Assembly (NCBI GenBank): GCA_010015805.1 | Contig: ML978126.1 | Span: 1,550,001 to 1,614,000 of the forward strand | Direction of reading: 5' to 3' | Source of the DNA: Rhizodiscina lignyota | Taxonomy: Eukaryota | DNA length: 64,000 nt | Translations under genes and position numbers: made by a program | In this document: piece after piece, positions 46,453 through 64,000 of the stretch | Position numbering within the stretch: the first letter of the stretch is position 1 | Layout: the number at the start of each line of letters is the position of its first letter | The notes under the pieces: model-generated | The model's database searches: none | The model's input: only the letters and a program-made list of their open reading frames with translations | Told to the model about the DNA's origin: nothing

Positions 46453-46460
46453 TATATAAG
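46453..46460 (+). promoter_or_regulatory. TATA box of U2-like gene A
   Basis: TATATAAG about 44 nt upstream of the U2-like 5' end, followed by a CT-rich tract. Confidence 0.6.
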
Positions 46461-46496
46461 CTCGCGGTTCTTCGCCCTTCCTCCTCTTTTCTTCTT

Positions 46497-46684
46497 CAGT
46501 TCTCTTTGCCTTCTGGCTTAGATCAAACGAAGATTTTGTTCTTCACAGTTTAATCTCTGTGACAAGACTACGGTCTTTTCCTTGATTATTCAAATATTTG
46601 GAACCAGGTCGGATTCCTCTGTGCTTGCGCACGTTTCCTGCCACAGTGTCGCCGGTATTGTACTACCTCCGGCTGACGCGAACA
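46497..46684 (+). ncRNA. U2: U2 snRNA-like gene, variant A (branch-recognition sequence GAAGAU)
   Basis: Stem I TCTCTTTGCCTTCTGGCTTAGATCAA; stem IIa TCACAG-TTTAATCT-CTGTGA; stem IIb AAGAC-TACG-GTCTT; IIc complement GATTA; Sm-like AATATTTG; GCTTGC at loop III; stem-loop IV with ATTGTACTACC; about 188 nt. Confidence 0.85.
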
Positions 46685-49600
46685 TTCTTTTCTCATTGCT
46701 GCTTCCGCCTTGTGCGGGGGCCTGACGAAGAAAGATCTATTCCTGCCTTGTCTTTTTGTTGTCCTTGTTGTAGTTATTATGACTAGGTGGTTTGGCCTTC
46801 ATGACGCGCGTACCATTGTGAGAGGGTTGAACATTTATGAAGGATCTAGTACATATGCACCTCGTAAGAAGGAGGGCAGCCTGCTTTGCAAGAGTGATAA
46901 AGGCCTCGGAGTAATTTAGACAGTAGATGCTTTATGGAAGAGAGCATTGATAATACTAAGAACGCTTTGATGTTAATTACCTTTTCCAAACAAAGAATTC
47001 AGTGGGAACAAAGCAGTAAGGTTGACTAGAACCATTGCCACTGCCCATTCAAAATAGAGTCGCATTATGATAGTGATCCTATGATTTTCTAAGAGCTATT
47101 GGTGTTCAGTTGGCAAACCGCGACGGAGCGAGAACTGGCTTGGGCTACAGCATTCCGTCTGCGGAAATTTGTGCCAGCTGTAAGCCATTCCACATTCAAA
47201 GCAATAGAAGCAAGCTCTATTGCCTCATAAGGTATTTTAAACCGGTTCCCACCCGGATTTCGACCTTTATCGGTAGTGTAACGTCGCCCAGAGCTACAGG
47301 AGACGGCGTTGAAAAGCGGCCCCTTCACCAAAACAACATTACCAATTCTGTTCAGAGCTCAAACGACAAGTACGTGCCCTATCAATACTGCAAGCACGTG
47401 AATAGACATCAACCAAGACTGAAAAGAACCGTTCTTCAGCTTTCTCTGGAGTTTGTGGCAAACCTTTGCTTATCTCGGACTCGGAGAGAAGGAGATTCAC
47501 GAGTTTGTCCAGCTGCGCGCGCAAATTGAGCGGCTATTGACCCAAACAAATCCAAACTCACACAATAGAAGACCAATATCTAACCAACCGAATTAAAGTC
47601 AGAGGAGTAACCGTCTGTGGTTACTGCTGTAGTTACCCTCAACAAGTCGATTCCCCGACCTCTCTACCGTCCCCACCCTCCGCGCCTTAAAGGCTAGCTC
47701 ATACCGTACACATATTTATGGATATCGAAGGCATGTATATATCTGGGATACGCTGAACTCATCGTCAGAAGGAGAATGGAATCTGTGTGCATGGCTGGCA
47801 TCCAGGTGGTTTTACAATATTGGAATCGCCTGCAAAGAGAGACCATATTCAGAAGATCTGAACAGCGAATGCAAGGCGATCAAGCGCTGTTAAGCATGAA
47901 GTTCTGGCTCTTAAAGGTCTATTCTAACGCTGGTGGACTTGGTCTTTGGAGACTCGATCGTGAATTGTTTGTATTCGGCACACTTGGTGAGTTTCTTCGC
48001 TAGCGCATCGAACACTGCTTTCCAGAAGAAAGACTTGATCCTTTGCGTTGATGTTTCCGATATTACGCAATACAAGAAATCATAAAAAGGACGTAGAACC
48101 ACCTTGCCACCTCTTACTACTCAAGTCGTATATTAAGAGCAATATTAACTTGTCTTCTTAGGTTTAGAGAACTGAGTACAGTCTACCTTCGCAGAATCTA
48201 TCTCTGCTATAGTCGTCAGACGTCCTTTCTCAAGACTAACCGACCAATTCTAGTACATAAAGACCCTTATCCTTATCTCTCCCCAGAGTCAAACAATGTC
48301 ACAAAATCCCGATGCAGGATTTATGAACAGTCCCAACTCCGCGCCTTTCTCACCGAACCCTATTTCCGAACGGCGCTTTATCGAGAATCTGTGCTGTCAA
48401 CTACAAAGTTCGACAAACTTGGCTAGAGCAACTCAAGTCATATGGAAAGGGCGGAGGTGGAAAGGATCTTTGCAACTCATGACGATTACGGATGCCTAGT
48501 GAGGAAGATACTCTGAGACAAGAATTGGCGAGGACTTTGCAAAAGATCCATCTTGCTCAAACTACTCTTGTGGAGTGATACTAAGAAGAGGACAGAGGTT
48601 CTGCTTTGGGAGTCGGATACAGTGCATGGAAAGTGGAAGCTCAAATAATCAATTTTAGATTGCCACTACTAGCAAGGCGTGTATCTAGATCAAGTTTAAC
48701 TCTCTAATAGTCCTAAATCTGAAATATGTACTGAATCACAAGCGGATGGAAAAGAATCCTTTTCGACTACTCTTTAGCTCAAATCTATCCTACGCCGCTA
48801 AACGGCGACTTTTGCTTTTGTATGGCTGCCCATCCTTATACATTCCGTCCAGATCAGCGTCCGCCCGTTTATTGACCTGTTTGAAGAAATGTAAGGCTCG
48901 ATAAATGTCTCGTCTTTCGTCGACATGCGTAGGTAGGTGAGAAGGAAGTGTGATCGTCTTGGTGGAGCAATTTGAACTGCAAAAGAATCAGGCAAGCTTC
49001 TCGGCCTGAAAACTGGAAGCCTGCACTATCTGCGGCGTACATGGCTCTGTTAAGTATAATCTAGTCAATTATGCCTTTTCGGAATGACTATAATGCTTAG
49101 GGAATGTCAGCACGTTCTCTGTATCTTTGCATTTGTGCTGAATCGAAAGGCTGTAGCAGCGTCTTGTTATAGTCAGAGAAGAACGCGCTTCTGGGACAAA
49201 GTCCGCCTTCTGATATTGAAGAATATGATACTTGTCATATCTGACAGAGTCGAACTGACTCGAAAGAGCTGGCGAAATGCTTAGGGTGGCCAACACAAGC
49301 ATTCTGCCCTCCTTTTCAATTGGCTAGACTCCCGGCGACGAACTCAATTAGAAGCTCTATAACCGCTATCAATGCCAATTTCCGACCAAAGGTATGTATT
49401 GGGGGGAGGAAGATCCGTTTGCGATCGAGAGAGGAGTAGGCGGCTGGTTGAGTCGTTTAAACTGGGTGGCTGTGGCGCGCGACACAGTTATTGAGTTGAA
49501 GTGTGCGGAAAGTGTAATGTACGTCAAACCTAACAACCGCAGCTTAGGGAAAGAACTAAGCACTGTGATGTATCGAGAAATTTCGTTACTAACCGCCGGA

Positions 49601-51017
49601 TAGTAGCGGCCGATTGACTGACTGAGACTGCTGGTCACTTCGCTCTGATTGGTTGAAATGCTTTCCCGTTTCGCTATGGTCCTTGCTACGACTGTAGCAT
49701 CGGAGAGGGTTTCAAATCAATTCGAGAAGCTTCACGGAGAACTTAATGTTTTGGAATCTTCAAGGCTTGTAAGGAATCAAATGTCGTTTACGGGGTTGAT
49801 GTCTGTAACTGGTGATTGTTCAAGCCTCTGGAAAGCCTCACTACCAAGCGAAGCGGCGTGTAATTGTAGCTAAGTAGCAGAGACGCTGAATTCTCTTACA
49901 ATGTTCTACTCTTTATAAGCCTTTTCGGCGTCTCCATTGTTGATATGGGTCCACTTTCGCTGAACGCCCATTCATCAGCACTGGAAAATAGTCTACAACG
50001 GGCCTCAAACTGAGACCCTTGATGGATCAACACTTGGAAGATTTCGTATGACTCGAACCTAGCGAAGAGTACGTTAATACCGAGCAAAGCCGATATCGAG
50101 TAAGCCTCTCTTATGAGACTGGTGAACTGTTTGCATTGACGTCGCATCTCCGCAGAGGGAGTCAAGGCGCTTAAGTGTACAGGTAGTTGTCGATGGTAAT
50201 GATTGGCATTAAATTGATGACCTCCGGATATGGGAACACCATGTCATTCTTGGTTTTGTTACTATCTCATTCATGCTGAAGATTACGGAATAAGACTTCG
50301 TGGCGAAGGACTGTATTGGAGGGAATGTCAAGATAAATTGTCGTCGACTGGTCCACCGTCGCAAAACAAGAACGCCTGCTATCGAATCTCGATTGGACAA
50401 GGCGAAAAGAGAGAGCGAAAGGATATCGAACAAAGCTGTAGATCAAAGGATTATTGTAAAGGATGTACAACTCGAGAGTAGGCAACCGATATCACGGCCC
50501 TTAGGTTTACATTCACGGCGCCCATATCCGCAAGGAAAGTGCATTAATCTATCGTTTAAAGACATTAACTACAAGCATTGGACTGTATAAGAGTCCTGAG
50601 ATATAATTATTTAATTCCGATAGGTCTAGCAATGCAAATATCATGACCAGTCCGTGAGCCTTTTCCTCGCCAGCATTACCAGGAGTCAGAGACTCCACAG
50701 GCTACATTTTCAGGGTTACATAAATAACATCCAGTCCTAATTGGTTGTGATCATTGTAGAAAAAGTTTTTCGTATAGTAGAACTATAGAAGGCTTCTTAT
50801 ACACACAAGAGTAAATATGCAAACGGAGAGCAAAGCTTCTAGGTCAATACCGTTACGCACACAAATCACCAAACACTAAGAAGCCTATGTAAATATAACC
50901 ATATCATAAACCCAAGAGAAAGAGATCACTATGTATCTCCAAGAGTAAACAAGATTCCAAATCCATTTTCTTCCTCATGCGCCTGTTCGGGACAGACAAA
51001 ATGATGAAGAAAAAAGT

Positions 51018-51210
51018 GGCCAGGCGTCAGAAGACGGTAGTGCAAGGTCAACGACACCAGGAGCCTTTAATCCAGCACGTAGCGCTTTCAATGGCTCCGA
51101 AAACAAAAAATTAAGCATAATCTTGATCACGCCGTAGCGTGGTGACAGAGATTAAACTGAAAAGAACGAATTATTCGCTTTCTCAAAGCCAAAAGGCAAT
51201 GAGATCGCTG
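51018..51210 (-). ncRNA. U2: U2 snRNA-like gene, variant B (branch-recognition sequence GAAUAA)
   Basis: Stem I TCTCATTGCCTTTTGGCTTTGAGA; GTTCTTTTCAGTTTAATCTCTG; stem IIb CACGC-TACG-GCGTG; GATTA; Sm site AATTTTTTG; stem III GGAGCC/GGCTCC; loop IV TTGCACTAC; about 192 nt. Confidence 0.85.
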
Positions 51211-51247
51211 GAGAGAAAAAGAAGTCGAAGAGGGGAAGAGGAGGTTG

Positions 51248-51255
51248 TTTTTATA
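51248..51255 (-). promoter_or_regulatory. TATA box of U2-like gene B
   Basis: TATAAAAA about 45 nt upstream of the 5' end, followed by a CT-rich tract; same geometry as gene A. Confidence 0.6.
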
Positions 51256-52461: not shown

Positions 52462-55400
52462 TTAAGATAAAGATGCATTGCATTCGTCCATATTGCTTCG
52501 TTGTCTACAACTCGTATTGCCCAGGTCTGCGAAAATAGGACCCCAAGAAGCGAAGCTGTCCATGCGCCACCATATCGAAGCACTCCAGTCCGCACCTCGC
52601 GGTTTCATTGCGGTTTGATCGTCCATGCCCCAAAGAACTCTGAGCCTAAAGAGGCTTTCGTTTGTGTTTGGGTTTGGCGCTTTTGCCATCTCCGTGTAGT
52701 TCGTGAACGCAGGGAGGTTCTGGGAGGAAATGTGGATGGGTGTGGATGGCTGGTCGATTTGTTCCGGCCGATTGGGAGGATGTCCATTTGCGAAAGCTAA
52801 GGTGGAATTATTTCGTAAGATTACTTCGGCGTGGCTGGAAACCGTCCAGTTCTCATGCACGCTTGTCTTCTGACATTCTCCACAAGACTAAGATAGTCAG
52901 TTAGCAAGAACATCACGAATAGGGCCAGAAATCTTACTGAATGTAACTCATTGAGGAGCTCTGCTCCTCTGGACAGGCGGCCACGGACACCAGCAACTTG
53001 AGTATCAAGATTCGCTGCATCTATCAAAGGCGAGCGGAAGAAAGAGGAAGAGAAGTCGCTCGGCTGTCGATATATGGGCATCGATTCTTCTTGCCTTATC
53101 GTCGAGACCGTGATGATGGCAGCAGCGTGCTCTTCAATCAGTGATTTGTTCTTTGACTGACTATTGTTATGGTCCCAGCAGAGCGACTGGGCCCAGATAA
53201 ATCGTAATTGCAATCGGAAAGCAATCTCAATTGCTTGCCTTAATAGTGGAGATAGAATGCTCATGCTGCACCATTTCTTCAGACGGAGGCGTTGGATCAA
53301 CCACTCGCTGCAAACTTTGCGGCTTCCACCCAATCCAGTCAGATCCTCCAATGCTGCATATTTCGGTGTGACAGGAGGAGGGCCAATCTCTTTCGGGACA
53401 ACGATTCGAACAGCGAAACCGTGGTTGGCATAAGGTCTGAATTCCAAGAGTAAAGGCGGAAAAGTCTCCGTCGAGTAACCGAACAACTTCGTAAAAGGGG
53501 CTCCCATCCATCGTTTGGTACAGGCAACCTCTCCTTTTGGTGGTATTGCAGATTTTATTTTAATATTCCACCAGAAACATAGTACGTCCGAAGGCAACGC
53601 CACCATTGTATCGAAGTCATCCAATGGATGAAAAACAGTTCGATTGTTGGCAGGTGTTCGCGTTCGAAATGCAGCTTTCACCTTCTTTGGAAGCTGACGG
53701 AGAACGCCGAGTCTTGGCATTAGCGGTGGAGGCACTAGATGCATTGCCCTTGAGAGGCCAGAGACCACCTCTGCAGCCGAAGGACGCAAAGTTGCGTCAA
53801 TGTGAACCATGCGTGAGCAAATGTCAAGCAGGCGTTCACTGAGAAGAGCGGGTGCGCCTCGAACCTTTTTGATTTGATCCTTCACGTACTCTGATACAAA
53901 GCCGAATCTGCCTCTAGTGCCTCCAAGAACATTGGAGGTGGACTGTTGGAGTCTGAGGATTCGCCGAAAGTCGAAAATAGAGGAATGTGTCATGACGATG
54001 ATTAGCTCCAGGAAGACACAGCCAAGTGAGTAGATATCAGACTTCTCTGAACGGTGACTTGAGAGAAATACCTCCGGCGCGGCATATGTTGGAGTCAGAG
54101 TGTTCGAGAAGCGCGTTCCGGACTCGATTTGCTCAGTTGTCGAGGTGCCGAAGTCTGCAAACAAGAAATTGGTCTTTGCAATTAATATATTTGCTGGCTT
54201 GATGTCGTTATGGAGGAGGTTGTTGCTGTGGAGATAAAGCAGTCCCGTTGCGAGCACTATCAAACCACGAACGAGCTGATGTAAATTCACGTCAGGATGT
54301 TTCCACGGGCAGGAGGTAATGATCAAGGTCAAAGTCGGCAACGGGCTCCATTAAAAGGCTGAGATTCCATTCAGAAGCGGCGACGATGCGCACACAACTA
54401 GAATGGTCGACTTGCTTCATGATGTCGGCCTCGTGGCGGAACCGGCGCGCAGCATCTTCATCAGAATCCTGCCGATAGTGATATTTACACGCATACTCCT
54501 GCCCCGTTGGACTGTAAACAACCTTTTCAACTTTCGCAAATGTTCCCTTCCCCAGTTGCCCCCGGCTGAGTAACATCGAGTTCCAGCCGTTGAGATGGAA
54601 AACGAGAGCGCCAACAAGGTCGATGTGCTGCGTAAAGGCGACAACTGTTGCCTTACGCTCTCGGCCTGTTGGCGAGCGATGAGAGGATTTCGATGGGGCG
54701 TGCGAATGGGTCGAATGTGTTGGGTTGGATTGGGAGGACAGCTGGGAGTTAGGACTGCCACTTTTCCGTGTGCTATCTTCTTGAACTGAGACTTTCTGCC
54801 CTTGCGGCGCTTCAATCAAATTCTCTTGAGATTGAGTGCATGTACTGGAGCTCTCTTCTGGCCACCTGTGGTTGTACTGGCTAACATCCTTCGTAATCTC
54901 CGGGAATTCGCCGTCAAAATGTTCCTTGAGGTGCCTCATCCTATCCTCGAAAGACTTGAACCGCGTGCCACCCCAGCCGCAGCGCTTCTCAAAGGTTGTC
55001 TGAAAGGAATATGTAGAAGCATCAACAACAATACCAATGGCATCAGTATTGAGGCGATGTGCTCGTGTTCCTAGATGTGACCTAACTTTGTCTCGTCGAA
55101 AACCGACAAACGGCTTCTCTTCCCCGTTGTCGAGACAAAGCTTACACACCCACACTTCTTGTGGTTGGCGAAGGACTTCATGCCGTATCCACAGATCTTT
55201 TCGTGTGAAGGATCGGCCACAGCCGTAGGTGCAGTGGTACGGTTTCGAGGGGTCCACTTCTTCCGGATGAGGGGTTTTGCAATCGTGCTCGCGGGCCTCT
55301 TCATACTTCTGGCGGACGAAGCGCCAAATCCTAGCCTCATAACTGTCATCTTCGTCAGAGAAGCTAATTGGCGCCTGCTGAGCTGGAGCAGGAGGATTAT

Positions 55401-56135
55401 GTGAAGACGGAGCTCGAGGTTGTTCCAAGCCTGAGAATGCAGACGATTTATTTCCAGGACGGAGTAGTAATGAACTGGTAGATGATTCCGCTTCGTTCTG
55501 TCGGTCTAGTTTCGCTTCTGCTGGCGTGTGCAGCTCGTTGTTTCCAAATTCGTCCGACCTCCACAGTTGAACTTCATCAAAAGAGCATCCCAAACTACTT
55601 GCCAGGCCTCTCAGCTGATTCTCAGAAGGTCGTCCATTATACTTCTCCAAAAAAGGTCGTATAACCCGGAGATCCGCCTCATTTATAGAATATTGCTGAT
55701 GAACTCTTTTGGCTGGAGACTTTCTTTCTGCATCTGCTGATGCCCTCGATCGCTTCGTCCCGCCCTCGACAATATTAGGCGCAAATTCCGGTGGAGTCTG
55801 AGAATTTGGCATTCGAAATGTGCCATTTTGACCCTGTTGAAAGAACGGTCGAAAGTCATTTATATTATTCAGGGATTCGATATTTGGGGAGGAAAAGGGG
55901 TCAATCAACAGATTCTGGCTGTAGAAGCCGCTGTCTCTCGACCGCCACGTGGCGTCGGGGTCACCATTATTGGGCATCTACAAGCAGTCAGTGGTCTGCG
56001 CTCCTCACTATCAGTAAGGGCATTATGGAGTTGGCGTACCAAAGCACTGGTGTGAGCCAACTCATTGTTTTGGTCTTCAGCCTCGTGCATGACTTCAGGC
56101 AACTCGGTGACAGCGAGTCCATTGTCTGCAGGCAA
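52462..56135 (-). pseudogene. Homeodomain-like/C2H2/Ser-Thr kinase/HET-like fusion, copy 1 (frameshift near 54310; true start uncertain)
   Basis: ORF 54292-55977 carries the homeodomain-like segment, C2H2 fingers, GKGTFAKV, YACK and the alphaC Glu. It continues in ORF 52821-54341 (HNDIKPAN, DFG, APE, HET-like). Introns 56039-55978 and 52937-52888 are both phase 0. Confidence 0.75.
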
Positions 56136-57114: not shown

Positions 57115-59830
57115 TCAACCGTCTTTCTTCAGAAGACTCCATGACATGCCATATGCAATATGAGATTTACAGTTGCAAGACAAGAAAAGGTACGGTCGAA
57201 CGGCGTCTCCAAATGAAGATGGCATGCAAATGCTCCAAGCTGTCAAAGAAATTTCGACCAGCAGCGACGACAGTACGGAGTGCTTCATACATCCGCACCT
57301 TAGCGGCGGAATAGATAACGCTGCCCAAGCCCCAGGGTCGGCTTCGCGATGTGGGCAGCGCTGTTCGTTCGGAAAGTCGGAGAAGGTTGTCGCCCATACA
57401 GCGGCGATGGTAAAGCGCAACAGCAACATTTAGGGAGATCGGAGTGCGGCTTGAGGATACGAGACCTCTCGGGATCAACGTCGACCTTCAGCCTCAAAGT
57501 GTTCTGATTACTGTTGCGAGCAGGTCGGACCAGGCGAACGCTGAGGTTGTTGGAAGAGGTAGAGTCGAACTCCAGCAGAATCGAGGGAAGTGATTGTGTA
57601 GATGAGGGAAGACTGGCCCGAGGCCAGCGACGACTATTAAGGTAAGCGCGCCGGTGTCTCCTGGAGCGCAAGATGAAGGGGGAGTCCAATCTAAAACTTT
57701 TATTGGCACGCTGATCGTACAATGCATTCATCGAGGAAATGTCGTCAAGATCTAGCGGAGACGAACCCAGGCTGGTGCGTTCGGGGTGGTCGCGGTGATG
57801 CAGCAAATCGGAAGTGTGAAAATGTTTCCTTGGTAGAAGCGATGTTGTGATGATGCGCATAATCTGAGTCAGAGACACAGTGACTTCAGCTGTAGTTGCA
57901 CGTTGAACAGGAATTGGATTAAGCATGCAGCAGCAGAAATCTGAGAGTCGTCCCGCACTTAGAGAACTCGTGTCGCCGAGCTTTGCCTTTATAGCCAGCA
58001 GCGTCCGGGTTATGAGCTCTGAACGAAGAACAAAGGCTCTGTTGTTGATGCGGTCGCCCCTAAAGGAACGGACTTTATTCGCATTTCGATGGCGCCGCGT
58101 ACGAATTCGCCTCGGTTTAGGCGACGGCCCACGGAGCATAACCAACGCAAGCTCCAAGAAAATGCACCCCAGAGCACAAATATCGCACTTGGTTGTGAGA
58201 TGCAAAAAGTCGGGGGTATCTGGTGCTGCATACATTGATGGCGATGGGCCAGACGTGGTAGTGTTATCGAGGCCGATGTACATTAAGTCCGTTTCATGAA
58301 TGAGGGTGTCAGCAGCTTGAACGTCGTTTTGGACCATATTGAGGTTGTGAAGATATGCAAGACCGCTGGCGATAGCAATGAGTGCGCGGATAAGTTGGCC
58401 GGGCCGAACATTGGGGTAGATGTCGTTCAGGAGTTGTATAATACTAGCATCCATGTTGAAAGGCCGGAGCTTTGTTGTTTGTCGGTGTAAGATCGACTTC
58501 CCAGCATGCATCGACAGGGCCCGTTGATGCGCGACATTTTCTACGCGAGCCGGTGTACCGTACCACAAAGCCTCCATGCTTCTCCATATTTCAGCCGAGA
58601 AGCGCAAGTGCGCCGCAAGACGCAGAAGGAAATCCATCTGAGAAGAGAGCGAATTATAAGTCAGACTAGCCATTCTCTGGTCGACAGTGTTGCTGCCCGG
58701 GCTAGCAGTGATCGAGTTGTTGTGATCGTTCAAGCTTGCGCCAATGTGTCTGCGCGGGCGGCGTCTTGTCCGAGGGGAATATGCATTTTGACGAGGATCA
58801 GAAGCGGTGGCCTGGTGGCCTGGCTTCTTTTTCCCAGCGATTCGATTGCGAGGCTCATAGTTATCAGGCCAGTTGCGACTGTATTGTGCGACATTGATTG
58901 CAGGATAGATGCAGTTGGAGTAATGTTCGAAACGCTTCGAACGGTTCACGAAAGACCTGAACCTGTAGCCACCCTGCCAGCGATGCGACCCAACGGTAAG
59001 CAGGTTTGGGTTGCATTGGGAGAGTGAACCAGTGAAAGCGACATCGAGGTCTTCTTCTTGCAACAAGTGAGCTCTGACTTTCAGGTAATGTTTCGTCTTG
59101 TCTCTTTTGAATGCGATAGGGGGGTCGGATCTCTCGTTCCTTCGGCGGGCAGGGTAAACCCAGATCTGTCGGGGCTGCCGCAGCGTCTTATGCCTTTCCG
59201 AGTTGTCCCTCTTCATCAAGGAGGAACCACTATTCCACATACATGGATGGGTAGTGCCACGCCGGCCATCCTCAGCTGAGTGTGAGCCACTATGGGGTTG
59301 CTGCGCAGGCTGCCGTACAAGCTGTATGGGCGTGAGTCTTGAAATTGGAAACTTGGTCGCTGGGCTCGGTAGGGCCTGCAATGCTCTGGTAGCTCGGTGC
59401 ATGGTAAAGTGGCGGTGAGTGAGAGACCGGTGAGGAATGGATGCCGCTCTGAGACTTTGATTCGCGTTGTCGATTACATCGTTGCCCGAGGGAGAATAAA
59501 TCGGTCGCTCAGCATGAAATGCGCGTCTGAAATCCTCACTCAAAGTCAGACTTCTATCTCCAGAGCAAAATGAGAGTCTCTGGTCCTGAAGGCCAACTTT
59601 GTTCGGGTATCTTTCCATCCAACCGCGCTCACGGGCGACATTCTCCTCTAATAGCTGAGCGCATGTTGCTTGAATAGGATTCTCTTAGTTTGTGGTTCAA
59701 CACTCCCAGGCTCATCCTGGAGCCTCATCACTCTTTCCACTTCGTTGTCTTTTCGTCCCACATGTGAAGCGCCTATGGCAGGCGGCCCCTGAACAGGCAT
59801 CAACGGGCTGGGAACATGTTGAGGGTCCAA
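57115..59830 (-). pseudogene. Same fusion family, copy 2: degenerate zinc fingers and pseudokinase
   Basis: 772-aa ORF is colinear with copy 1 (RHKTLRQPRQIWV, FKRDK, GLAYLH, YAAPD, DICALGCIFLEL, LPSILLEF). The HET-like tail is split across frames. Confidence 0.65.
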
Positions 59831-61287: not shown

Positions 61288-64000
61288 TCATATCCTAAAC
61301 TTCTTGAAATATGGAGCCCACGACGCCGCACTGTCAATATGCCACCAAGAAAATTTGGTACCGTGTGAGCAAATGTCCTCCTCATTCCCGGTCCATGTTC
61401 CCAATCCAATGTAGGCCCTCAACAAGTCCGGGCCATTCCTATTCAATATAAGTCCTTCAATATCATTAAAGACGTATGGTGCCTGCGGAGATGACCTGCT
61501 CCGGTCATGCGAGCTGGTTGGCGATAAAACATCTCCAGCCGATTCTGCTGAAACTTGCGAGACAGATGGCATCGATGTTTGCGATTTAGCACAGTTCTCT
61601 GGTTGCTGCCATGAAGATTCGTTGGATCGAAGGAAGGACTTGGCTTCAACAACATCTGATGCCAATGTCTCCTGCGATGTTGATTGTATGGGAGACCATG
61701 ATGCACTCCCAGGAGCCTAGATACGAGTAAGCGTTTGAAAAAGATAAGATGAACTTATCAACCATACCAGGATCTGCTCAGCAAAGCTGTTCTCCGATTC
61801 CGGTATCGCCCGCATTTCACTTATTCTTTCGAGGGCAATAGACAGCTTGTGAGTTAATTCAGAAGATAAATGTTCGCCTGGTTTCGCCAGGCGATATGTC
61901 GATCTTCGAAAAAAGTAAGCTTGGTTTTCAGACACTGGAGCGACGGTGGAAGCGATAATGATGGCAAAAGCCGTAGAACAGATCAGCGCGGTGTCCTCAT
62001 GCTCAGCTGAGCAGATCTCCTTTACCCAGAGGAAGTTGACATGAAGCTGGACCGTGATGGCGATTGCATGTTGCATAGAGAGCCCCAAGCTTGAAGGCTC
62101 AAGCCAAGTTCCTGATGCCAAACTTCTCGCATCTTCGACTGTATCAGGAGATATCCTCAGCCAGCTGTGGTCAGTGAACACCGCATACTTCGTGTCCCAA
62201 TGCCCAGGACCAAAAGATGAAGTTTCCACGAGGGAAATCCGGTGGACCTTGCCCTTAACAGTGCTGATCTCGAGAAGCTTGGAGGGTAGCCCGCTATGGT
62301 CTACTGATTGATGTGAAGAGCTTTTGGTTACGGCAAAGTCAGGGGACGACAAAGCAGGTGGCGGAAAAGCGATTCCCCAGCGCAGAAGAAGGTCACTCGC
62401 ACGCCACGATTGCCTCTTTCCGAGTTCTTGAGGTGATATATTCGGAACAGTTGTCTTTTTCCATCCCGTGCAGTCTTCACTGAAGTGCAGCGTTGCCCAA
62501 TTTAGGGATAAAGAGCGAGGGATGAAGTTTAGCAGTCGATCAAATCCGACTGCAATTTGGAGAGCAGTGGGGCGTGCAGAAGGAAGAGGATTGAGCATAG
62601 CGGCCGCAAGTACCCAGAGGCCCTCGAAGAGGGAATCGCATTGATCATTGGCGGCTCGCTCGAGTTGTCGGTTTAAATACCGTGCCGTTGCAGATAAACG
62701 ACGTCTCGTAAATTGATGTCCATTCTGACTGAAAACTCTGGAGACAAGATGTTCGCGGAGCAATTGGACTGAGCCTTGAGTGAGAATCACAAGGACCTCA
62801 GCAAAAACCGCACCAAGCGAGAAGATGTCGCTTTTCATTGTATGTATAGAGGATGAGAGAGCCTCTGGCGCAGAGAACATCTGCGGCATGTCTGATGCAG
62901 AAATCTTGATCGGCCGCGTAGCCATCTTCGTGGTCAAAGAATTACGCTCCGTGGTTGAACTTCCGAAGTCCGCGTACAAAAACTTCGTGCGAGCAATGAG
63001 AATATTGTCCGGTCGGATGTCGTTATGAAGGATTCTCTTCTGGTGAAGGTAGACCAATCCATCCACGAGTGCAATAAGACCAGCAAGGAGCTCGTGGCGC
63101 TGCACACTGCTGTAGTGTTTCGGGTCGAGAAGGTATCGCTCCAGATCAAAGTCGGCCACGGGCTCCATGAGCAGGGTTGGTCGCGGGCCTTGTGACAGCC
63201 CTGCCACAAATCGAACGCAGCTGGGATGGTTAATGAGTTGCAGAATCTCGATCTCACGTTGGAAATGCGCCAAGTCGACACCAGTCGCCCCTGGCTCCCG
63301 AAGAAGTTTCTGGGCGTAAGAAAAGCCTGTCGGGCCGTGTCGAATTTCCTCTACCCACGTGAAGGTGCCGCAACCAAGAGTCTGCACATTTTCAAAGCTG
63401 TCGCTCTGCTCCGAAAATGGAAGCACAAGAGCTCCAAGCAAATCAATGCGTTGTGCGAATGTAAATCTGGCTGCGTTATGAATAGCTCGGTGGGGTGCAC
63501 CAGAGCCTGATGTCGACGTTGCATCATTCATGAAATAAGCCGGCGAACTAGAAATAGAAGACGGAGAGAGCGCGCTAGAAGGACGCGTTATTGTCGTGCA
63601 GTTCCCAACAGCTGCAGGGACGGTGGCAGTATTGCTCACGGATGCCTTTCGCACTTTGCAACTATCCGGGTCTTGTTCAGGCCAGTCTCTAATATAGCGG
63701 GTTCCGTTGCGACTTTCATAGTAGTCGTGAAAGTGATCATGGAGATGGTTCAGTCTGTCTTTCCAGCTTTTGAATTTGTATCCCCCGAATCCACAGCGGG
63801 GCTCGAACAGTCGAGCGTTGACAGGCCTCGAGAAAAATGACTGCTCCACCAGTTTTTCTGTACTTTCTCTTCCTTGTGCATGGACTTGCGCCCTGACTAA
63901 ATGGTCTCTCATTTTGTCCTTTCTCAGAAACAACTTCGGGTCTTTTCTGCCCTCCCTTCGACACAGAATGCAAAGGTACACAGCTTGAGGTTGGCGCATC
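61288..64000 (-). CDS. Same fusion family, copy 3: C2H2/kinase/HET-like, apparently intact (5' end outside window)
   Basis: CILC...H...H and RCGFGG...HLHDHF fingers; GCGTF, YAQK, HNDIRPDN, DFG, APE; LPSKLLEI...KYAVF...QHAIAITVQLHVNFLWV. Intron 61767-61717 links in frame to ORF 61288-61665. Confidence 0.82.

Follow-up and report, generated by a model that had tools for sequence, protein, structure and literature searches.

The 64-kb window analyzed here (contig ML978126.1 of the Rhizodiscina lignyota assembly GCA_010015805.1, positions 1,550,001 to 1,614,000 of the forward strand; coordinates below count from the first letter of this stretch) carries two U2 small nuclear RNA (snRNA) genes, designated A and B, in which the branch-point recognition sequence GUAGUA is replaced. 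GUAGUA is among the most constant RNA sequences in eukaryotes. Both loci are genuine U2-family genes and not chance matches, and sequence comparison suggests that they belong to an expanded and diverging U2 family, in which A would represent a subfamily of at least three loci and B a more eroded relative. The reading we favor, tentatively and at somewhat less than an even chance, is that A and B are transcribed, structure-constrained, splicing-incompetent U2 paralogues.

The identity of the two loci rests on the Rfam covariance models, which were run over the whole window. Gene A matches RF00004 (U2) at 46496-46687 on the forward strand (112.7 bits, E = 5.5e-22), with a likely mature body at ~46498-46683; gene B matches at 51015-51205 on the reverse strand (79.8 bits, E = 4.2e-14), with a body at ~51209-51020. 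Both matches span model positions 1-192, and the gathering score of RF00004 is 46. Both genes are full length and have no A-tail. A first-pass annotation of this DNA had described two convergent U2 units of ~190 nt, at 46497-46684 (+) and 51210-51018 (-), and the Rfam coordinates agree. When only the best match among overlapping members of clan CL00006 was retained, it was U2, and not U12 (minor spliceosome), for both A and B. No further Rfam family was matched across the 64 kb, even at E <= 1. The convergent genes are separated by 4.3 kb of what had been called an ORF-poor region. This spacer contains six stop-to-stop open reading frames (ORFs) of at least 90 aa, none of the six has a Pfam match, and indices of composition typical of repeat-induced point mutation (RIP) are unremarkable across it.

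For comparison, metagenome contigs were scanned for the stem IIa stretch common to A and B, GTTCTTNNCAGTTTAATCTCTG, giving at least 117 loci (L001-L117). All counts of comparison loci given here are among the matches listed, and the contigs carry no organism names; their likeness to A and B, together with short introns that have CTAAC-like branch sites, suggests that they are of fungal type, and we take them as ascomycete-like. Nearly all of the loci are canonical U2, in which the 5' region ...AGCUCUCUUUGCCUUUUGGCUUAGAUCAAGUGUAGUAUCUGUUCUUUUCAGUUUAAUCUCUGAAAC precedes a UACG-looped stem IIb. In the unfiltered set, GUAGUAUCU stands directly before the stem IIa pattern in 102 of the 108 loci with enough upstream sequence. 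The six exceptions are L007 and L038, which carry intron-like inserts; L111, which keeps GUAGUA and has the following base changed (135.8 bits); L030 and L081, which have no Rfam U2 match; and L012, a contiguous variant with GUAAGA (124 bits). A U2 gene that has stem IIa but lacks GUAGUA is rare in this sample.

Genes A and B share most of their layout with the canonical loci. Among the features shared are the 5' end AGYUCUCUUUGCC, stem I, the GUUCUU-NN-CAGUUUAAUCUCUG stem IIa, the UACG-looped stem IIb, stems III and IV, a TATA box at about -45 followed by a C/T tract, and a downstream T-rich/CAT box, hairpin and GAAGA box; A and B also agree with the stem IIa pattern at each of its 20 specified bases. 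Of these features, stem I, the UACG loop and the TATA position, which the first-pass annotation had singled out as landmarks of the pair, are standard in canonical U2 loci. What sets the two genes apart is the replacement of GUGUAGUAUCUG in both, the changed GAUCAA in B, an internal A in the Sm site of A, and lower Rfam scores: 112.7 and 79.8 bits, against 129-162 bits for 20 canonical loci, so that both genes fall below all 20 and below L111 as well.

The most conspicuous difference lies in the branch-point recognition segment. In a gap-free alignment, the canonical GAUCAA-GU-GUAGUA-UCUG corresponds to GAUCAA-AC-GAAGAU-UUUG in A and to GAGAAA-GC-GAAUAA-UUCG in B. GUAGUA is thus absent from both genes, with GAAGAU in its place in A and GAAUAA in B, exactly as had been read from the letters initially. 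In A, ACGAAGAUUUUG (46527-46538, +) replaces GUGUAGUAUCUG, with six of 12 positions changed and the adjacent GAUCAA upstream intact. The altered 5' region of B (51167-51184, -) has GAGAAA for GAUCAA (51184-51179) and GCGAAUAAUUCG for GUGUAGUAUCUG (51178-51167), the latter again differing from the canonical segment at six positions. The two variant segments differ from each other at four of the 12 positions, and at four positions they carry the same derived base. Since four identical derived bases are unlikely by chance (rough P ~0.0035), the rewrite probably arose once, and the variant state probably predates the divergence of A and B.

This location of the changes is not what an even spread would give. 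Across 55 distinct canonical sequences, conservation reaches at least 95% at 76 columns. A departs from these at 12 columns, six of them within the 12-nt segment (hypergeometric P = 0.0024). Its other six changes comprise four that make up two compensated pairs of stem IIa, a single change in loop I and another in the Sm site, so that outside the segment A keeps 58 of the 64 conserved columns. In B, 17 of the 76 columns differ: six in the segment (hypergeometric P = 0.021), two in GAUCAA and nine elsewhere. The claim that divergence is concentrated in the target-recognition segment therefore stands for A (six of 12 changes) and for B (six of 17).

Two other functional sites are touched. GAUC(AA) is the U6 partner in U2/U6 helix Ia; it is intact in A, reads GAGAAA in B, and reads GAUUAU in another A-type copy (record 2, described below). 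The Sm site has the consensus RAU3-6GR. In the Sm-site region of A, AAAUAUUUGG (46592-46601, +), an A interrupts the U run where the 55 canonical sequences have AUUUUUG. The Sm site of B, AAUUUUUUG (51104-51112, -), is consensus-like.

Two further features of the segment were considered and set aside. The rewrite could close the segment into a hairpin, with a 6-bp stem and a triloop in A and B where the canonical segment has no fold. With energies of just -1.0 (A) and -3.1 kcal/mol (B), these hairpins are equaled in 35% and 8% of shuffles, and the 51-nt folds have z scores of -1.4 and -1.1; the effect is not significant. A 29-nt match to the segment of B at 47418-47446 has no U2 continuation and is a chance match.

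The fold was assessed with an RNAalifold consensus of 36 pairs, built from a MAFFT alignment of A, B and 20 canonical genes. A forms 34 of the 36 pairs and the canonical genes 32-36 (median 35), while B forms 24. A is a structurally normal U2, with stem-loops I, IIa, IIb, III and IV all present. B is eroded: stems I and IIb are intact, and it forms 4/6 pairs of stem IIa, 3/11 of stem III and 8/10 of stem IV. The losses are two basal pairs of stem IIa, most of stem III, with its degenerate apical hairpin, and two pairs in stem IV that are now U-U. The count for stem III may be understated, MAFFT having placed an insertion in B poorly; by eye, a 6-bp basal stem, GGAGCC/GGCUCC, remains. The U2 fold, described at the outset as conserved in the two genes alike, is therefore kept in A and broken in stems IIa, III and IV of B.

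Compensated changes are found both against the canonical genes and between A and B. In stem IIa, A has two compensated pairs (UCACAG/CUGUGA, where the canonical stem is UUUCAG/CUGAAA). Between A and B, pairs that changed on both sides and still pair number three of four in stem IIb and one each in stems I, III and IV. The covariation noted in the first-pass annotation is thus present, including the stem IIb sequences it gave. As a special signal, much of it does not hold: the same stems vary freely among canonical U2 genes, so the compensations between A and B point to past structural constraint and to nothing peculiar to the variants.

The flanks of both genes carry the elements of a U2 gene. 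A TATA box ~45 nt upstream of each unit had been reported, and it is found as TATATAA at 46453-46459 (+), -45 from the AG start of A, and as TATAAAA at 51249-51255 (-), -46 from the AG start of B, each with a C/T-rich tract after it. The same order of TATA box (-37 to -62), C/T-rich tract and YAG start is seen in 31 canonical loci. On the 3' side, a three-part arrangement is shared by 67 of 79 canonical loci: first a T-rich/CAT box, then a hairpin whose sequence varies, then a GRVGAAGR box situated at +34 to +61. Taken by itself, the GRVGAAGR box is present in 70 of the 79, compared with 1.2% of shuffles. The 3' flank of A (46688-46731, +) has the T-rich/CAT box at 46688-46696, a hairpin at 46701-46721 (-12.5 kcal/mol) and the GACGAAGA box at 46724-46731 (+40). 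That of B (50969-51015, -) has the T-rich/CAT box at ~51015-51004, a hairpin at 50998-50980 (-6.5 kcal/mol) and the GAGGAAGA box at 50976-50969 (+43). The hairpin sequences differ between the two genes. We presume that the three parts are signals for 3'-end formation; for this and the other flanking elements, conservation is what suggests a function.

Similarity between A and B falls off sharply outside these elements. The bodies are 66% identical (z = 9.4), and similarity persists from -60 to -1 (z = 4.5) and from +1 to +55 (z = 3.8), while the distal flanks are unalignable and random (z = 1.0 and 0.8). A body and proximal signals kept amid randomized flanks are what genes under selection show, and could also be what genes show that were under selection until recently.

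Moreover, A and B are not alone. One public DNA run was found for this organism's locus; here called X1, it was assembled as contigs (34 Mb) and shares 98% of sampled words with the window. Its contigs were aligned to the locus at 80% likeness, which gave 24 records, with 8 of 27 pieces among the matches listed; the resulting table is blind to differences within ~30 letters of piece ends, and summed depth in it is not equivalent to copy number. Two X1 contigs cover the locus of A and B itself without differences. Five other long contigs (records 2, 3, 5, 6 and 7; 3.3-72 kb) end in or cross U2-like sequence at depths of 145-164, like the single-copy flank (156.6). Records 2 and 3 cover the U2 5' half. 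Record 3 has no listed difference from A across all 12 positions of the segment, and its loose end carries the Sm variant of A, AAUAUUUGG. Record 2 has no listed difference from A at 46527-46535, the nine of 12 segment positions that are readable, and GAUUAU stands where A has GAUCAA. Record 7 represents a further U2-like type. Record 4, a 154-nt unitig of depth 265, has the canonical Sm site AUUUUUGG. Its compensated differences from A join 46567 with 46574 in stem IIb and 46609 with 46640 in stem III, and it is probably the canonical U2. These records support at least three A-type loci (A, record 2 and record 3), plus B, plus at least two other types. The pair proposed in the first-pass annotation is therefore real as two U2 loci and does not stand as an isolated pair.

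Two details of the X1 alignment concern the window itself. At 46513, in loop I, the window has C, and all five X1 contigs that cover the position away from their ends have T; the C gives the loop UUCU, where the canonical loop is UUUU. Either this is a strain difference between the window and the run, or the unitig of the locus itself lies outside the matches listed. In addition, a joint marked 'goes back 4932', from 51400 to 46469 (depth 156.6, side 36), may reflect similar C/T-rich promoter tracts.

The window also bears on whether an ordinary U2 is required. Read by hand, the intron of a flavin-containing monooxygenase (FMO)-like gene has a TACTAAT branch site, and that of a P450 gene has the branch-like site ATACTCAT. 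Since an intron in the window has the canonical TACTAAT site, a U2 of the GUAGUA type would still be needed elsewhere in the genome, and we infer that a canonical U2 exists there. In a crude scan of the window for intron motifs, the 11 occurrences of RCTRAC compare with an expected 5.7 +/- 3.0, and motifs that would pair with A or B are no commoner than chance. Likewise, complements of the A and B segments have three matches in the window, with the genes themselves included, against 1.95 and 1.82 expected in shuffles.

The favored reading of A and B as transcribed but splicing-incompetent paralogues can be put as a sequence of steps. RNA polymerase II would transcribe each gene from its TATA promoter, and the 3' end would be formed through the T-rich/CAT box, hairpin and GAAGA box, as in canonical U2 genes. 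The RNA would fold into stem-loops I, IIa, IIb, III and IV and could then bind U2 core proteins. It would form no branch helix with UACUAAC-type sites, and the RNAs of B and one other copy would also lack U2/U6 helix Ia; with these helices unavailable, the RNAs would take no part in splicing catalysis. The changed GAUCAA in B and in one further copy argues in the same direction, against a catalytic role. Outside catalysis, the RNAs might form non-catalytic U2-like particles that serve as competitors or as a reservoir for U2 proteins, or be tolerated passengers. Selection would have eased at the 5' functional sites while still acting on the scaffold and expression signals, with the family slowly losing members such as B. 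The sequences themselves show that the genes belong to the U2 family, how they fold, the location of the changes, the conserved elements in the flanks and that further copies exist; transcription, protein binding, the lack of splicing activity and any competitor role are what we infer from the genes.

Several points weigh against this reading. Both genes score below every one of the 20 canonical loci, and with B eroded, part of the variant family is decaying. The rewrite shared by A and B could have arisen in one mutational step, in a dead copy that was later duplicated. Gene conversion from a working U2 could also maintain similar blocks with neither gene under selection. The U-to-A change in the Sm site of the A-type copies could block assembly of the Sm ring and hence the stability of the RNA. 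In upstream regions taken from -160 to -45, 26 of 47 canonical loci have TAGCG, often as CTAGCG, at a distance of 18-60 nt on the 5' side of the TATA box, and the motif is absent from A and B, as it is from 21 canonical loci; a smaller group of canonical loci (5/47) has GCACRGRCCAC instead, and both motifs could be lineage-specific proximal snRNA promoter elements. The canonical set was picked by a search pattern and a 5' region filter, which makes the invariance of some of its columns partly a matter of construction; the invariance of the segment also holds in the unfiltered set, as the 102 of 108 loci with GUAGUAUCU indicate. Finally, GUAGUA was not seen among the X1 matches listed, where record 4 starts just after the segment; a canonical copy may still be present in the run.

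The strongest competing account, appreciably probable in our estimation and still the less likely of the two, is that A and B are ordinary pseudogenes. Here a clustered mutation in the branch segment of a U2 copy would have abolished function, and duplications and decay would have followed, leaving A young, B old and both perhaps untranscribed. The erosion of B (24/36 pairs, GAUCAA changed), the low Rfam scores, GAUUAU for GAUCAA in record 2, the altered Sm site of the A-type copies and the missing TAGCG motif are all as such decay would have it. The rewritten segment is also no better kept than the body, differing at 4/12 positions between A and B where the body is 66% identical. Furthermore, the four shared derived bases help form a small inverted repeat, CGAA..UUYG, such as one event of a template-switch type could produce. 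Against decay stand the 58 of 64 conserved columns that A keeps outside the segment, with four of its six changes there forming two compensated pairs; the compensation, between A and B, of one pair in stem I and three of the four in IIb; the TATA position and all three 3' elements, intact in both genes despite unalignable distal flanks; and the match of both genes to all 20 specified bases of the stem IIa pattern. Decay that lasted long enough to randomize the flanks should also have destroyed these features, and their intactness therefore counts against pseudogenes. Indeed, of the marks by which snRNA pseudogenes are judged (even changes, uncompensated stems and lost flank signals), A has the opposite in each case, its changes being concentrated, its stems compensated and its flanks intact. 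B is mixed, with stems III, IIa and IV eroded, stems I and IIb compensated and the flank elements intact. Like snRNA pseudogenes and retro-copies, the genes occur as multiple dispersed copies with damaged functional sites, B being partly eroded; unlike them, they span the full length of U2 without an A-tail and retain compensated stems along with promoter-like and 3'-processing-like elements.

It is unlikely, in our view, that A and B instead represent a distinct U2-like class with a job of its own, long kept in several copies in the fungus, in which the segment and the Sm site would have been rewritten while the scaffold and gene signals stayed under selection. Such a job could be the recognition of non-canonical branch sites, or the regulation of U2 protein availability outside catalysis.

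Another proposal, made in the first-pass annotation, is that A and B form variant U2 small nuclear ribonucleoproteins (snRNPs) with new branch-site specificity, which would process a special intron class or otherwise direct the spliceosome to non-canonical sites. The concentration of changes in the recognition segment, with the scaffold preserved and GAUCAA, hence helix Ia, intact in A, would suit it, as would the at least two other loci that carry the segment of A at every readable position. There are also precedents of a kind: in the available text of one report, human U2 variants with single changes in the segment reach spliceosomes (PMC8457000), and a report on trypanosomatids describes, in its available part, a U2 that functions although it lacks the motif and its Sm site is degenerate (PMC13601561). 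However, GAUCAA is lost in B and record 2, the segments of A and B are themselves different (4/12), the Sm site is altered, the complements of the segments are not above shuffles in the window (3 vs 1.95 and 1.82 expected), and the two window introns have ordinary branch-like sites (TACTAAT and ATACTCAT); at 64 kb, the window is too small to reveal a rare intron class. On this evidence the claim of new specificity finds no positive support, and we regard it as rather improbable, though conceivable for A, which keeps GAUCAA.

That the A-type RNA is the organism's working U2, with introns that co-evolved, is very improbable: no GUAGUA-type letters are listed where X1 contigs were aligned to A, but a window intron has TACTAAT, about half of the summed stem I depth drops out over the branch-point segment, suggesting differing copies clipped there, record 4 has a canonical Sm site, and GUAGUAUCU is present in 102 of 108 related loci.

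Paralogues of this kind have partial parallels elsewhere. In human, variant snRNA genes (variant U1s; U2-17P, -37P, -63P and -70P) are likewise paralogues once taken for pseudogenes, and the available text of that report describes U2 variants with single branch-point-sequence changes that are expressed and enter snRNPs and spliceosomes (PMC8457000). The human U2 variants differ in degree, with single-base changes or a small deletion beside the segment, as far as that text goes, against six of 12 positions replaced in A and B (PMC8457000). The trypanosomatid U2, according to the part of its description that is available, has no branch-point motif and a degenerate Sm site (PMC13601561); GUAGUA is accordingly not absolutely universal, and the A-type copies share both departures, loss of the motif and a changed Sm site. 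The setting differs: in the same partial account, that RNA is the only U2, with lineage-specific Sm proteins and introns that have no conserved branch motif (PMC13601561). In our case canonical branch sites exist, and the variants stand beside probable canonical copies; the resemblance may serve as a lead only. Among fungi, many have a single locus per snRNA, as stated in the available text of PMC8457000, and two U2 loci are reported for A. fumigatus in the accessible part of PMC2377427. A full-text search of a limited library found no report of fungal U2 variants without the branch-point sequence.

The canonical comparison loci show a feature of their own: many carry inserts in the 5' region, which fall at several points from stem I up to GUAGUA. 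At their 3' ends, these inserts have a CTAAC/CTGAC-like motif followed by a pyrimidine run and AG, and so have the look of spliceosomal introns. Introns of the mRNA type are known in fungal U2 and U6 genes from older literature. By script, 29 of 108 loci were classed as non-contiguous; the majority have this intron-like look, and four (L012, L030, L081 and L111) are variants or non-U2. Examples of interrupted U2 genes are L002, L010, L015, L017, L021, L025, L057-L059, L061, L065, L067, L071, L077, L078, L095, L097, L101, L107 and L109, and GTAYGT lies directly 3' of CUCUGA in three loci (L060, L076 and L089). The insert of L007 (340-398) lies inside GUAGUA, after GUAGU; it starts with GTGAGT, contains CACTAAC and ends in TCG, not AG, before AUCUGUUC. 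At L012 (275-464, -), the U2 is of another type (AUCGCUUCU-AGCC...), in which GUGUAAGAAC replaces GUGUAGUAUC, and is another natural U2 without GUAGUA.

The surroundings of A and B in the window look like those of a filamentous fungus, a filamentous ascomycete in appearance. G+C content is ~50%, the P450 gene consists of two exons around a 44-nt intron, and the window also holds the FMO-like gene with its short intron, several protein kinases and a UPRTase fusion. ORFs with protein-kinase domains run at 52824-55977, 57303-59684 and 61720-63999, all on the reverse strand. The first of them lies in two overlapping frames, split at ~54295-54350 with no clear 5' splice site at the junction, and may be a pseudogene or contain an unusual intron; for want of that splice site, the junction was dropped as a candidate third intron.

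A U2 subfamily of several members that keeps the fold and flank layout, has the segment replaced and the Sm site touched would be unusual for a fungus. Since fungi in general are credited with one or few loci per snRNA, and many with a single locus, as far as the available text of PMC8457000 states it, so would be a diversified U2 family as such. The comparison set, for its part, reveals conserved flanking elements and frequent intron-like interruptions in U2 genes of this type. How much the finding is worth depends on expression of the variants. If they are expressed, they would offer a genetically tractable system for variant-snRNA function, a question yet to be answered for the human variant families; as pseudogenes, they would still show U2 genes multiplying and diversifying in a fungus.

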